Source: Psammoneis japonica
Lineage: Eukaryota
Direction: 5' to 3'
DNA: 64,000 nucleotides
Assembly: GCA_008632985.1 (NCBI GenBank)
Contig: QPGO01000170.1
Location: forward strand, 62,001 to 126,000
Below are positions 49,426 through 62,300 of this stretch, one piece after another. The notes under the pieces are model-generated. The model made no database searches and was not told the DNA's origin. It saw only the letters and a list, made by a program, of their open reading frames with translations. Positions within the stretch are counted from its first letter, which is position 1. The number at the start of each line of letters is the position of its first letter. The translations under genes were made by a program, and so were the position numbers.

Positions 49426-52400
49426 CTACCGGAGCCACGGGTGATTCTTGATCTGCTCTAATGTCAATCGTTGAGCTGGAGCCGGTCGCAATACTTCTTG
49501 CATCAAATTCCTTGCGTCGCTGTCCAAGTTTTCAACGATCGCGATCATGTCGTAAAACTCAGTCATACACTGAAGTCGAGAAGAGTTGTCACCCTGCAGT
49601 TCTTTTTCCTTCATTTTCTTGTTTAGATTTGCGTTCGTTAAACCACCATTCACAATGAAATGGCGATAGATCAAATCGCACGCGTGAGGGATTCTGTAAA
49701 AGTGACGCCCGGTAAGCAAGCAAAACAAGACAACTCCAAGACTCCACACGTCTACACCGAAACCATCCACGTCGTTACACTGACGAAAAATTTCGGGGGC
49801 CATGAAAGCTGGAGTTCCAGAGACACCGACAGCCATGATTCCGTTGTCCGATTGCCGAACTTTGCGACTCATTCCCAAACCAATCAAGACTGGTTCCAAT
49901 TCATCCAACTGAAGTTCGCTGTCGCCCTCGAGGACTATGGCGTCATTTTTCAAATCGCAATGGCAAACACCACGCCCATGGAGCAAAGATAGAGCTTCAA
50001 CAAGCTTTCGGAAAAGGCTCTTCGAGTTGTGAGTGGCACCCTGAGCTTGACCTTGACCGTGTTCCTTCCTATTAATGTGGCTGCCAAGGTCACCGTTTCC
50101 GAGGTAGGGAGTCACGACATATGCATAACGATCATCTTCGAGAGCATCCACTAATTCAGTCGTTGGACTTTTCCCTTGATCGGAGTGAGTCATCAAGAAG
50201 TCCATCGCTGCAATCTCATTGTAAGGATTCTTACAACCTGATACTCTACCGCTCCTCCATGAACACCGAATACCAAGTGTACTACACCATCTGCGAACTC
50301 TTTTGATCACTACCATTTCCGCATCTTGCTCTGATGGCTCACGGAATGTAGGCTCCCCTGCGAGATCACGTCCCACAAACTTCAACGCCACTGCCTTGTA
50401 CAACTCTTTCTGACCTGAACGTCCAACGTAGAACGGCGCTGCCACTACAAGACGATACGCTTTGGGTGCACGATCTTCGTGTCCCGAATGGCTTTGGTAT
50501 CCGCTTGTCAAGAACACCTTTCTCTCCCCCTTTTCTCCTCCATCTTTTACTTCCCAGACCCGTTGATTTAACACGGCTCGACAAAGTTCGGGCTTCACCC
50601 AATCCAGTTCATCATTCTCCTGAAGCTTGGCCAAAGCGACAGTAACACGAGCCGGGACGTTAAAGAGCGCTTCTTCCTCCTTCTTGATACGTCCGATAGT
50701 TTCGCTCAAACGATTCTGGAGCTCGTGGGCTCTACCATAGTTCTTCGTCTGCACTGCTTCTCTGATGCGTATCTCCAACTTAGTCCTTCTTTCCTCGAGG
50801 TCTGTCAGAGACGGAAGATGGCATCGGAATCGATCAAGTTCCTCCAAATCAAAATCGAGCTGACATTCCAGAGCGTAGTCTACCTTTTCCCTGGCTTCCT
50901 GTAGCTTGGAAATTACAGTAAGTCTCTCTAGGTTGAGCATGACACGAGTCGTGTATTGGCTTTTTTCATACTCTTTCCTCCTTCCAAGCTCAATAAGATC
51001 CTCATACTGGCTTTTTTTCATCCTTTCGGCCGCGTCAGTAATGTACTTCGGGTGACCTTCTCCAATCAGAGAAAATATTTGAGAGCAACGAAAGGACATG
51101 GAGGAGCTGATCGCTGTCGCTTCAGCATGCGATTGGGGAACGAGTAAATCCGCCAGAGCTTCCGGTGTCTGGATATCGGAGCACACTCCCTGGAACACGA
51201 AGGGACACTTTGCCCCAAACAACAAGGCGGAGGATCGCATATTAATAGGACCTAGCTCCAAATGGAATTGAGTTGGCGTGACTTCATTCCTCAACACTTG
51301 ACCACATGGGTATTCAAGAACAACCGATACCCTGGATGTTCCACTAAAGAGAGCCTCGAGAAAGTCCGCTAACTTGGCAAAAGCACTGATAGAAGACATG
51401 CCACCTCCATCAATAAAGACGAGGGCCCTTTTTCCAGAGAGAATTCTGGCCAAACGCGAGCAGCACTGCTTATAGACATGACTATCAGACTTTACGTCCT
51501 GATTCATGATTGCATCAATGATTTCTTGAAAGCCACTCGACAACTTTGAGTCGTCACGCCCAAGGAACAAGGACGGAAGCCAATATATTTTCTCGAAGAA
51601 GAATGTGTCTCTACCTCTTTCAATGTACTCACAAGCCGCTCTGACCAGAGCGCTTTTCCCGGTTCCAGACTGGCCTGAAATTGTTACGAGTCTTGACTTC
51701 ATCAGCTGACGGATAACCGTATAGACCTCTTTTTGCCGCCCTAGAAATCCACTTGGAGGCCTCGGTAGCGACTCAGAGCTAGTCGCACTGGTATCTGGGT
51801 ACCGCTGAGATCTTCTTTCCTGTTCCACATTTGAAAGGTTCGAAGTGAATACCACCTCCGACTTGTTTGTGTCATCTTGAAGTAGAAGAAACTTCACCTC
51901 TTCTCCCGGGTGCCCCGCCTTGACAGCGGCTTTTGACATTTCAAATGCTACTTTCAGGTGCTGCCCAGACGCAAGCTGCATGTAAAAGTTGCGGGTAAAT
52001 TCAATGGCAGCCGCATCTCTAACCTTTTGGCGACAACACACAACGCTTGGAACCCCAGCATCCAATAGTACGTTTCCAATCTTTTGCGACCAGCACGCCG
52101 AAACAAAGATGAGTCTCAAGTTTCCTTTGTTGGAAGCCACCACGTCCCTCAATTCATTTAGACACAGTGGCTGCATTGCCCCGTCGTTTTCTAACGGCAA
52201 ATACTCTTCGTGACCGTGACATGAGATGTGTAATACAGGATTGTTGTTGGAGGCAAGGGCCTCCAAGAGACGAAACATTGAAGCCACCTCAAACTTAACG
52301 TCTACCACACTGCTTAGAACATCCGAAAGCGTTGCTCTCTCACGTTCAAAATCTGGTGGAGGAGCAAATGGATGAATATTTTTGCTTCTGTCCATCCAGA

Positions 52401-59342: not shown

Positions 59343-62300
59343 TCACATGGTGAGGCCTCCAGGCTTCAGGTTCAGCTCGCGAGCAATCCGTATCAATAGA
59401 TCGGCCTCAGTCTTGTTATATGCGCATAGACGTACTTCTCTCAGTTCTTTGTACCCATTAAACTCTGCAATAGCCTGAATGGCGATTCGCAAGGACCTTT
59501 CAATATCCCCCCCGGCACGGTGACCCGCACTGATAAGAGAGAACCCAATGGCTACCAGATGTTTTTCTGTGCTTGCTCTAGGCTAGACATATAGGCTGAG
59601 AGGAGCAGCTCATCATTCGCAGCCAACGCATTTGGTCCGTCATCTTTGGCATATGTTGGCCCGACTGCAAAAATCACGTACGGCACCTTTAAATCGCCGT
59701 AGTTTCGTGTTTCAGATGGAGGACCTATAATCCTCGCCTCTCCAATGCGACAGAGAATTGGGTCCGAACTGGTCTCTTCCCTTGACTCGGATTTCGCTAC
59801 ATCACGATCAACCTTTAAAGCGCCGCAGTTTCGTGATCCAAAACGAGGTCCTGTGCTCCTCTCCCCCATAAGCCTCTCCTCTCCTTTACGACTACCAATT
59901 GATCCGGAACTAGTCTCTTTTCTTGACTCGAGTTTCGCTACATCACGATGCAATTGCTTCCCGCCAGCTTCATGAATAGCCAAGCGGCAGATTCCAAGCA
60001 CTGGCTGCTAGTATGGCAGTTTTCATTGGTGGCACAGACAATGGCAGACTCACCATCCGGAAAGCTAAAGTCGACAATCGACGAATGCGTCACGGTCAAG
60101 AGGAAGGAGTAAGTATCTTCAGAACCAGCCTTTTTGGAAGTTATGACGAAACTGCCCGAACTCGACAAACTGGTAGCTTGACCTGATATCGGTGTTTTTT
60201 CATGCTGGTCTCGACGTAGCCCCATTTTTGCGTCCTTCTCTTCAGCCGCATCCGCTGCCTTCTTTTCTTTCTGCACTTTCTTTTTGTATCTTGATATTTT
60301 CACACTTATTTCCTTGGCCTTATCAAATTGTTCCAATTCATCTGCTTCTACCCTTTGCTCGTACAAGCTTGCTACGGTCTGTTCGAGCTCTTCTAAGGTA
60401 GGCAGCGACTTCCGAAGCTGTTCCAACTCATCCAACTCAGCCTTAAATTCAATGGCTTGATCGTAATTGCCGCTTTTTCGTGCAACTTTTCTTGCAGCCT
60501 CGTATTTCGCGTTGACTTCAATCCACTTTCGTTCCAACTTCACACGCGTGTCAATCTCAGCTCTATTCAACTCTTTCCTCATTCCAATTTTGATCAATTC
60601 ATCATATTCCTTCGCCGTCATGCTCTCCGCCGCTGCACCAATCCATCTGGGATTTCCTTCTCCAATACGGGAGAAAATTTCAATGCACCTTTTCGACATG
60701 GAAGCATCAATACGAGTTGCGCCAGCTTGAAACGGCGGAACAACTAAATCGGCAAATTGCTTTGGAGTTCTTATTGATGGACGCCTCCCTTGTTGCACAA
60801 AGGCGCACCGGTTTCCAAACAAGACAGCAGAGGATCGCATATTTAAAGGTCCAAGGGCCAAGTGCGCCTCGTACGGGATCACTTCGCTTTTAATCTCCTC
60901 GCCAGAAGAATTGACGACCACGACAGAAATTGTGAGTGATTCGAGAAACAAAAGCTCAAGGAAATATTTTAGCTTGGTCATTGCAAGTCCAGAGCGCATC
61001 TTGTGCCCTTCAATGAATATTATCGCCCTGATTCCTCGAAGCGATGCAATCGCCTGGTCGCAACACGTAGAGAAACGTTCGCTATCGATCTTGGCGTCTT
61101 TCGAAGAAACGAGCTGGAGTACTCTATTGAGGCTCACAATTACATCGTCTCCGTCGTTTTCTTGTCGCAGCGACGGCAGCCAAAAGACATCTTCGAATGA
61201 AAAGACGTCCTTGCGATCATCAATGTACGCACACATGGCGTGTGCCAGAGTTGATTTTCCAATACCAGGAACACCAGAGATTTGAACGAATCTGGATTTC
61301 ATCACATGTTCAATTGCATTGTATATTTCGATTTCTCGGCCGAAGATATTATTTGGAAAGGACGGCAGCAGCATTCTGGGAGAATCCTTTGTCATATCTG
61401 GTTGAGCTTGGGATTCACGTTTACATCCTGTTCTTTGAAGAAGAATTCATTTTCTGGGTTCGCATCTGTTTTAGATAGAAGGAGAAATCGTTCGGCATCC
61501 ACGGGCATTGGAGATGCCTTAACAGCAGCCTTGGCCATGTTGAACGCCTGTTTCAAGCTCTGCCCACACGCAAGATGTAGGTAAAAGGTACGGGTAAACT
61601 CAATGGCCTCAGAATCATTCACATCACCTTTGTGACACACCACATGAGGAACACCAACTTTCACCAATGCTTCTCCTGCCGCAAGAGAAGCACAAGCTGA
61701 TAAAAAGACAAGCTTCAAGTATTTTGCATCCTTGAAGAGAATCTCCACTTCATGGATGGCCAGCGGCTGCATTGCCCCTTCGTTCTCCATTGTCAAATAC
61801 TCGTTTCGCCCCTGACACGATAAATGCAGAATGCGGTTTTGAGGAAGAGCAAGATATGCCGATAGTCGAAAGGTATTTGCAGACTCAAACGACACTTGGA
61901 TCCACCGACCGGTCTTGGCCGCCGCTTCCTCAAAAGCCATCAACACCAATTGCTTTTCGTGCTCAAAATCGAACCATGGAAAGGGATGGGGTTTTTGATT
62001 CTTATCCAGCCAGACAAGAGGTTTGGACTGAAACACAGTCATGCATTCGTGCATGACACGAGAAACCTGAGCCTTGATTCTCGGCGTTCTTCTTGACCAA
62101 GGCCGCCATGCAGTGTTAATGACCGGCAAAGGGGGGCATGCTTCTGGGCTCTGCTTCTGACTTGCTTCCTTGGTTTTTGAGCCCTTTTCTATACTTTTTC
62201 CCACTGCTTTCCACAGAGTCTCTAGTAAACGAGCACATTCTGACTTGATGACTGGTGTTACAGCACTGTCTGGCAACTGCGGTACCTCCCCAATTACCGC

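Follow-up and report, generated by a model that had tools for sequence, protein, structure and literature searches.

A tandem cluster of NLR-like CHAT-STAND genes in Psammoneis japonica pairs one copy with an intact protease dyad and two probably maintained copies with a predicted dead protease site

We analyzed a 64,000-nucleotide (nt) stretch of the Psammoneis japonica genome (GenBank assembly GCA_008632985.1, contig QPGO01000170.1, positions 62,001 to 126,000 of the forward strand), which is called the window here and to whose numbering all positions refer. The minus strand at 49.4 to 63.2 kb carries a cluster of three paralogous genes, arranged head-to-tail and separated by about 0.9 and 1.4 kb. 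Their products follow one plan, with N-terminal helical repeats, a CHAT domain, a P-loop nucleotide-binding oligomerization domain (NOD), a coiled coil, and a variable C-terminal domain. Gene 1 has an intact His-Cys dyad in its CHAT domain, and genes 2 and 3 appear to be maintained genes in which this dyad has been lost. Gene 1 (49426..53634) is one intact open reading frame (ORF) of 1402 amino acids (aa), with a disordered N terminus, two tandem helical repeats of about 70 aa each (52705..53244, from the alignment with gene 3), the CHAT domain (Pfam PF12770, 5.6e-14, aa 422-566, 51937..52371), a STAND NTPase, a coiled coil, and a kinase-like domain (Pfam Pkinase, 6.7e-30, aa 1159-1401; 49432..50160, from Pfam and an alignment with CASK).

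Genes 2 and 3 have the same plan, except that a C-terminal macro domain (PF01661; 3.4e-10 for gene 2 and 2.7e-6 for a gene 3 piece) replaces the kinase. Gene 2 (54492..57937, with the Met codon at 57935-37 and the stop codon at 54492-94) is broken into four ORFs as assembled, and gene 3 (59343..63122, Met 63120-22, stop 59343-45) into three. Helical repeats homologous to the gene 1 module lie at 57119-57679 in gene 2 and 62100-62660 in gene 3, and the macro domain of gene 2 lies at about 54495-55124. Over about 2.75 kb, the DNA of the two copies is 90% identical. Relative to gene 2, gene 3 has an extra in-frame 270 nt in the N-terminal low-complexity region (62656-62925) and an in-frame internal duplication within the macro domain (59685..59949), which adds 39 aa. 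A direct-repeat search resolved the duplication into repeats at 59685-59808 and 59811-59949, 78% alike and spaced 126-141 nt, opposite which the alignment places gaps of 15, 90, and 12 nt in gene 2. Tandem Repeats Finder found no repeat inside genes 1 to 3.

The first-pass annotation of this DNA had stated that all three genes keep Walker A, which is the case: the motif is GQSGTGKS in gene 1 (51652..51675) and GVPGIGKS in both gene 2 (56272-95) and gene 3 (61252-75). The gene 1 NOD gave weak Pfam matches to nSTAND1, AAA_16, NB-ARC, and NACHT. Only marginally do the STAND profile scores exceed the Pfam cut-offs (nSTAND1, 28.1 against 27.1, for gene 1; nSTAND3, 28.5 against 27.2, for a gene 2 piece), and the NB-ARC, NACHT, and AAA_16 matches of the cluster genes fall below theirs. 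A profile of the family matches the NODs of Sr35 (E 5e-4) and Apaf-1 (E 7e-3). In the trees, gene 1, the database homologue P0016, and the pair formed by genes 2 and 3 make up one clade with support of 99-100; the relatives of the cluster genes come from marine protist transcriptomes (MMETSP) and the diatom Odontella aurita.

The dyad residues and coordinates given in the first-pass annotation for the three genes all proved right when the codons were re-read. In gene 1, the His codon is CAC (52218-52216, in LHISCHG) and the Cys codon TGC (52095-52093, in VSAC). The corresponding sites hold Arg (CGG, 56831-33, LHLSCRG) and Ser (TCT, 56712-14, LSASAS) in gene 2 and Gln (CAG, 61812-14, LHLSCQG) and Cys (TGT, 61692-94, LSACAS) in gene 3. 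Within the cluster the dyad is therefore intact only in the kinase-bearing copy, as had been claimed (H/C in gene 1, against R/S in gene 2 and Q/C in gene 3). Of 162 aligned homologues, 152 have H in the His column and 153 have C in the Cys column, and because of this conservation the departure from the dyad in genes 2 and 3 is, on the alignment, more than chance. When the family profile was compared with PDB 8tl0, which a literature passage identifies as a SAVED-CHAT protease of type III CRISPR, the dyad columns aligned with the H-G and A-C motifs of that protein (E 9.3e-10).

The remainder of the CHAT domain is largely kept in all copies. At a threshold of 85% or more of homologues, 34 CHAT columns count as conserved, of which 29 are retained in gene 1, 27 in gene 2, and 28 in gene 3. 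The Pfam CHAT scores are 52.7 bits for gene 1, 39.4 for gene 3, and a borderline 24.1 (cut-off 24) for a gene 2 piece. An AlphaFold model of the gene 3 CHAT domain, the one copy of the three that was modelled, had a predicted local distance difference test score (pLDDT) of 93.1. Its best fold match was again the SAVED-CHAT protein 8tl0 (E 1.6e-13, TMq 0.73), followed by DdvA, caspases-4, -11, and -1, CED-3, legumain, and Craspase. Because neither gene 2 nor gene 3 has the required combination of His and Cys, the two should be classed as members of the CHAT fold, not filed as proteases; gene 1 is the sole copy plausibly able to act as a protease. The earlier description of genes 2 and 3 as protease-dead sensors or regulators thus stands in its first part: the caspase-type dyad is lost, and the rest of the domain (27 and 28 of 34 columns; gene 3 pLDDT of 93.1) is conserved.

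Alignment of the two copies with each other revealed six frame-breaking indels, each private to one copy. In gene 2 (56180..56826), 1 nt is missing near 56825, 1 nt at 56490-93, and 2 nt at 56180-87; in gene 3 (59561..61416), 1 nt each is missing near 61416, near 59980, and at 59561-66. Introns were rejected as the cause, because the differences are of 1-2 nt and the break sites hold no extra sequence relative to the other copy. Read evidence came from the contigs of two DNA runs (X1 and X2) of one sample, aligned to 49300-63700. At all three gene 2 breaks, contigs of both X1 and X2 carry the extra letters, 4 nt in total, and the gene 3 break at 59561 is contradicted by a 1315-nt contig present in both runs (depths 53 and 87). 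Over these four sites the contig depths are 45-87 and no contig is without the extra letters, whereas heterozygous sites elsewhere in 49300-63700 are covered by two contigs, each at about half depth. With the 4 nt added to its 3443 nt, gene 2 becomes a single ORF of 1149 whole codons running from the Met to the stop codon named above.

Contigs from the other copy were also considered as the source of the inserted letters. This was rejected at the four contradicted sites, where genes 2 and 3 are 87-93% identical within 50 nt either side of the break (89-93% at the gene 2 sites) and no accompanying substitutions are listed, so the contigs there are copy specific; it is possible at 61416 and 59980. 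A 7614-nt read contig spanning 49300-54981, including gene 1, has 0 base differences from the assembly. Of the 12 listed indels at which reads and assembly disagree, at least 11 lie within the duplicated 54-63.7 kb and none in the 5.7 kb around gene 1, and for this reason the consensus of the duplicated region looks poorly polished. The frame breaks of genes 2 and 3 are likely, mostly and perhaps entirely, consensus errors of the assembly.

Two further observations were made on this region. Synonymous divergence between genes 2 and 3 is 0.084 in the coiled coil (about 55000-55450 and 59980-60430), compared with 0.25-0.28 elsewhere, and read contigs of one copy also align to the other copy in this segment; together these suggest gene conversion between the tandem copies. 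At 63245-63700, the summed contig depth in run X1 is about 2785, against about 58 elsewhere, and many contigs end with loose letters at 63245-63322, a pattern suggestive of a highly repeated element whose edge lies immediately upstream of gene 3.

For the comparison of genes 2 and 3, an N was placed at each of the six breaks, giving 1098 aligned codons. With the breaks so masked, both genes are open, with 0 stops in 1098 codons. The ratio of nonsynonymous to synonymous divergence (dN/dS) is 0.315 (Nei-Gojobori; bootstrap 0.26-0.40), and by part it is 0.41 in the N terminus, 0.30 in the NOD, 0.30 in the macro domain, and lowest, at 0.234, in the CHAT domain. The differences number 96, 74, and 176 at codon positions 1, 2, and 3. 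Had these 346 differences been unconstrained, 11.9 stops would be expected, and zero stops occurred in 0 of 2000 simulations. Derived residues are symmetric between the copies (34 vs 44), neither being faster. The low dN/dS and the lack of stops indicate that the predicted dead CHAT domain has been under purifying selection over a divergence of dS about 0.25. Neutral pseudogenes, which the first-pass annotation had named as an outcome that would overturn its interpretation, are not what these figures describe; with 0 stops in 1098 codons and a dN/dS of 0.315, genes 2 and 3 are better regarded as maintained genes with a predicted dead site. That they are both maintained and protease-dead we consider quite likely.

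The His was probably lost before genes 2 and 3 were duplicated, since codon parsimony requires two steps for a shared loss (CAY to the Gln codon CAG, then Gln to the Arg codon CGG in gene 2) against three for independent losses. The Cys of gene 2 would have changed to Ser after the His loss, when it was free to drift.

We examined the association of the macro domain with dyad loss in relatives of the cluster genes. With the N-terminal 576 aa of gene 3 as query, a HMMER scan of 1.84 billion representatives gave 1733 matches at E <= 1e-3, the best 150 of which align only to query residues 321 onwards, the CHAT part. A C-terminal macro domain like that of gene 2 was found in 10 of the 162 homologues. 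Three of them (P0016, P0042, and P0066) were called by Pfam at E <= 1e-6, which covered 94 of the 162; the other seven were called by phmmer with the gene 2 macro region over the full C-terminal domain. The idea in the first-pass annotation that His loss co-segregates with the macro domain fails in its strict form, because 6 of the 10 macro-bearing database homologues (P0016, P0042, P0066, P0106, P0148, and P0158) keep both H and C. Among these is the closest, P0016 (1012 aa, CHAT plus Macro, found in a search with the gene 2 C-terminal ORF and 39.5% identical to genes 2 and 3), so a macro-bearing relative that retains the His, which that annotation had regarded as evidence against itself, does exist. 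The remaining four (P0064, P0077, P0091, and P0134) carry Phe in place of the His, and their Cys position is occupied by His, Asn, or Phe.

A metagenome scan seeded with a second macro-bearing clade gave 66 loci and 31 CHAT ORFs. Eight of the 10 macro-bearing CHAT-STAND ORFs are without the dyad (F/F in one, Y/F in five, Y/R in one, and H/V in one) and are uninterrupted at 1274-1868 aa, while the CHAT ORFs without a detected macro domain have H/C in 20 of 20; one truncated CHAT ORF has Y/C. The intermediate state seen in gene 3, with His lost and Cys kept, recurs in L012 and P0128, and in related dead lineages the Cys is replaced by Phe, Arg, Val, His, or Asn. The dead proteins outside the cluster belong to a separate 18-row macro-bearing clade in which live and dead members are interleaved.

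Macro-only lineages account for 7.3% of the exposed branch length on a 154-row tree, and a loss-only count placed 5 loss events in them against 6 in all other lineages (binomial p 6.5e-4); the six conservatively include three doubtful alignments and the L010/L012 pair. In raw terms, 14 of 22 macro-bearing rows are dyad-less, compared with 6 of 132 others. This count treats loss as irreversible and makes stronger assumptions than independent pairs, and independent contrasts of macro domain against dyad loss on a 36-row tree yielded 3 pairs only, with a median sign-test p of 1. On these alignments, the repeated shedding of the dyad by macro-bearing family members that stay intact is a real tendency, strongly enriched.

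Paralogue clusters occur in other organisms too, because the loci L002 and L009 each have, on the opposite strand (about 4767-5465 and about 4768-5232, respectively), a second ORF that ends in a macro domain, lies tail-to-tail with the dead-CHAT macro gene, and is cut by the contig end. Other CHAT-STAND homologues (P0032, P0067, P0055, and others) carry accessory LRR, TIR, ankyrin with kinase, TPR, Sel1, IQ, SAM, or LanC-like domains, a variety that fits a fast-shuffling receptor family.

The kinase-like domain of gene 1 scores 104.8 bits against Pfam PF00069. Its catalytic loop, HCDLKNDA (49939-49962), has Ala at the position of the Mg-binding Asn, and the DFG-equivalent segment, IGLGMS (49867-49884), has no Asp. 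The best matches of solved structure were CASK chains (E 7.9e-17), with HCDLKNDAI aligned on HRDVKPHCV and LIGLGMS on KLG-GFG. CASK, a metazoan MAGUK scaffold, is an atypical kinase without Mg-binding residues. Because both of these residues are missing in gene 1, as in CASK, its domain is probably an atypical kinase or a pseudokinase; identity between the two is low, and the aligned part begins only with the hinge region. The first-pass view of gene 1 as a kinase-bearing executor is therefore sustained for the CHAT dyad, which is intact, and weakened for the kinase, which lacks two Mg-binding residues. Judged by these motifs, degeneracy in the cluster is reciprocal, with a live protease and a degenerate kinase in gene 1 against a dead protease and a macro domain in genes 2 and 3.

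Both gene 2 and gene 3 have a macro domain that resembles Af1521 (E 3.3e-7), with SAGHRAG aligned on SAGI(Y/R)G in the second loop region. In macro domains, ADP-ribose is bound through the N-terminal Asn with the Gly-rich loop and through the second Gly loop. The C-terminal two-thirds of the domain are recognized, and its N-terminal part was aligned by neither HMMER nor Pfam. At the other end of the proteins, the helical repeats of genes 1 and 3 are 31% identical (E 3e-21), with cross-matches between repeats. No match to this module was found in the 162 homologues or in the best 150 of the 1733 HMMER representatives. A model of the module has six helices at a low pLDDT of 62.9, and a Foldseek search of the PDB found no match at E <= 0.001, its hits being generic helical bundles only. 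This private N-terminal module is the best hint in the sequences that genes 1 to 3 act in one pathway.

We propose that genes 1 to 3 are tandem NLR-like STAND ATPases, of which gene 1 has a live CHAT domain and genes 2 and 3 are maintained with a dead one, their frame breaks being mostly assembly errors. We give this reading a probability of roughly 0.7. Nucleotide-dependent oligomerization through the NOD would drive the switch. Proximity in the oligomer would then activate the gene 1 CHAT protease, much as happens in apoptosome-like systems. In genes 2 and 3, the dead CHAT domain may serve as a noncutting scaffold or binding module, and input or output may shift to the C-terminal macro domain through ADP-ribose binding or hydrolysis. 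The gene 2 and 3 proteins could work on their own or join live paralogues, gene 1 among them, in mixed oligomers.

A narrower version, which refines this explanation and is not its alternative, makes genes 2 and 3 obligate sensors or regulators, which would co-assemble with gene 1 and control its live CHAT domain. The genes are tandem neighbors and, with P0016, closest relatives, the orphan N-terminal repeat module is common to them alone, and the degeneracy is reciprocal. Human CFLAR, CASP10, and CASP8 are a precedent for such a tandem arrangement. For prokaryotic conflict systems, passages of PMC7159879 propose inactive caspase domains as dominant-negative regulators. The head-to-tail order on one strand is unlike that of plant NLR pairs, which are typically head-to-head. 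As to the pairing, P0016 also counts against it, being macro-bearing yet with an intact dyad (SGHG and SSC); since it and five more of the 10 macro-bearing relatives keep the dyad, the macro architecture needs no separate executor. Flanking sequence of the dead-CHAT macro relatives L010 and L001, available on one side for 6.5 kb and 2.3 kb, respectively, moreover shows no paralogue with a CHAT, STAND, or macro domain. That genes 2 and 3 work through gene 1 is accordingly a tentative suggestion that we regard as rather doubtful. More speculative still is its extension to macro-fused CHAT-STAND proteins of diatoms and protists in general, as recurrently evolved pseudo-protease receptors that would discard the caspase-like site time and again after gaining the macro domain, respond to ADP-ribose, and license or restrain live CHAT paralogues, here gene 1.

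In another reading, gene 3, or both gene 2 and gene 3, would be recently inactivated pseudogenes with real breaks. The six frame-breaking indels lie mostly outside long homopolymers, the dyad is lost, the gene 3 macro domain has an internal duplication, and Pfam does not recognize the N-terminal half of the macro domain. Against this, four of the six indels are contradicted by copy-specific contigs with no alternative contig, four added nucleotides restore gene 2 to exactly one ORF, stops are absent where 11.9 were expected, the upper bootstrap bound of dN/dS is 0.40, and the crowding of indel disagreements into the duplicated region points to a poor consensus. We think inactivation of this kind unlikely. 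We give hardly any weight to the possibility that genes 2 and 3 cut peptides with other residues, namely the upstream His of LHLSC and the Cys of gene 3. That His is present in both copies and in 159 of 162 homologues, and gene 3 does keep its Cys; however, the general base in caspase-fold proteases (clan CD) is the His before Gly, gene 2 has lost its Cys too, and the assortment of residues replacing the Cys in dead lineages fits released constraint after His loss.

Several points weigh against the reading of genes 2 and 3 as maintained, protease-dead macro proteins. Two of the gene 3 breaks, near 61416 and 59980, are not among the contig differences listed; within 50 nt either side of them, genes 2 and 3 are 97-99% alike. 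X1 and X2 come from one sample, possibly the assembly's own source, and contigs cannot show the absence of a variant, for which reasons we call assembly error likely but not proven. The dN/dS is averaged over both copies since their duplication and is compatible with a very recent death of one of them. The tree behind the enrichment was built with FastTree and rooted at the midpoint, and the sampling of loci was aimed at the macro-bearing clade. Finally, of the 118 positions in the Pfam macro profile, only 51-107 are matched by genes 2 and 3 (3-107 by P0016), and this partial match, together with the 39-aa internal duplication in gene 3, means that the macro domain may be degenerate too.

The cluster can be compared with several known systems. 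cFLIP is a pseudo-caspase regulator beside caspase-8 and -10, encoded in human by one of the tandem paralogues CFLAR, CASP10, and CASP8. The likeness is that of a dead tandem paralogue beside a live caspase-fold protease, with the fold and shared adaptor modules kept; in genes 1 to 3, however, the CHAT domain sits within a STAND ATPase and not in a DED-caspase, the dead copies carry a macro domain, and any heterodimer is putative. Plant sensor/helper NLR pairs, in which one member has an integrated domain and the other executes, likewise consist of neighboring NOD paralogues, one with an extra domain. They differ in their head-to-head orientation, which the Psammoneis genes do not have, and the NOD described here is only distantly NB-ARC-like.

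Passages of Kaur et al. (2020, PMC7159879) describe caspase-like domains in prokaryotic vWA-MoxR/STAND conflict systems that have often lost activity (in the effector position, about 70%); the inactive ones are proposed there to be dominant-negative regulators or peptide binders, and macro is listed among NAD/ADP-ribose modules. Those systems are bacterial and multi-gene, whereas genes 2 and 3 encode eukaryotic single-polypeptide CHAT-NOD-macro proteins in a tandem cluster. Fungal HET-Q2-like CHAT proteases, as described in passages of PMC8851545, are in some cases NLR-like, cleave gasdermins, and are gene-clustered. They share with the present cluster, with gene 1 as its live member, the combination of eukaryotic NOD proteins, a caspase-related CHAT domain, and clustering. 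The fungal domains, unlike those of genes 2 and 3, are active and lie beside a gasdermin substrate gene, and their domain order and C-terminal domains differ from those of genes 1 to 3; no gasdermin-like neighbor was found among the 16 large window ORFs scanned. SAVED-CHAT 8tl0 is the closest solved structure by both profile and fold, with the H-G and A-C motifs aligned, but it is a bacterial protein without a NOD that is activated by a cyclic oligoadenylate via SAVED, and its dyad is missing from genes 2 and 3. In type II Thoeris, according to the part of 10.1101/2024.10.24.620036 that treats it, a macro domain fused to an immune effector senses an ADP-ribose-derived messenger, His-ADPR, which is a model for the proposed macro input role in genes 2 and 3. 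Thoeris is bacterial, without CHAT or NOD, and the macro domain of genes 2 and 3 has diverged in its N-terminal half, so that ligand binding there is putative.

In the remainder of the window, a kinesin motor gene adjoins the cluster (47524-49260, Pfam 2.1e-83). Large ORFs at 31801-39244 encode a DUF7869 protein and two proteins with helicase-associated (HA) domains, one with four of them and the other a DEAD/ResIII helicase with one, and several ORFs of 250-950 aa nearby had no Pfam match at E <= 1e-5.

We found no description of CHAT-STAND proteins of diatoms in the searchable open-access literature, and NLR-like cell-death or immune machinery of diatoms is hardly described. The frameshifts in genes 2 and 3 would lead annotators to call pseudogenes, though they are most likely assembly errors. 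The locus offers a compact natural experiment, with one live and two predicted dead caspase-like STAND paralogues side by side, and in the wider family dyad loss is tied to one accessory domain, macro. Should the live copy prove to be regulated by the dead ones, a distant eukaryotic lineage would share the pseudo-caspase logic known from animal apoptosis, and ADP-ribose signaling would be linked to protease-based death switches outside bacteria. If macro-fused CHAT-STAND proteins are indeed such receptors, they would be an independent protist counterpart of cFLIP/caspase-8 and of sensor/helper NLR pairs, with reciprocal domain death.

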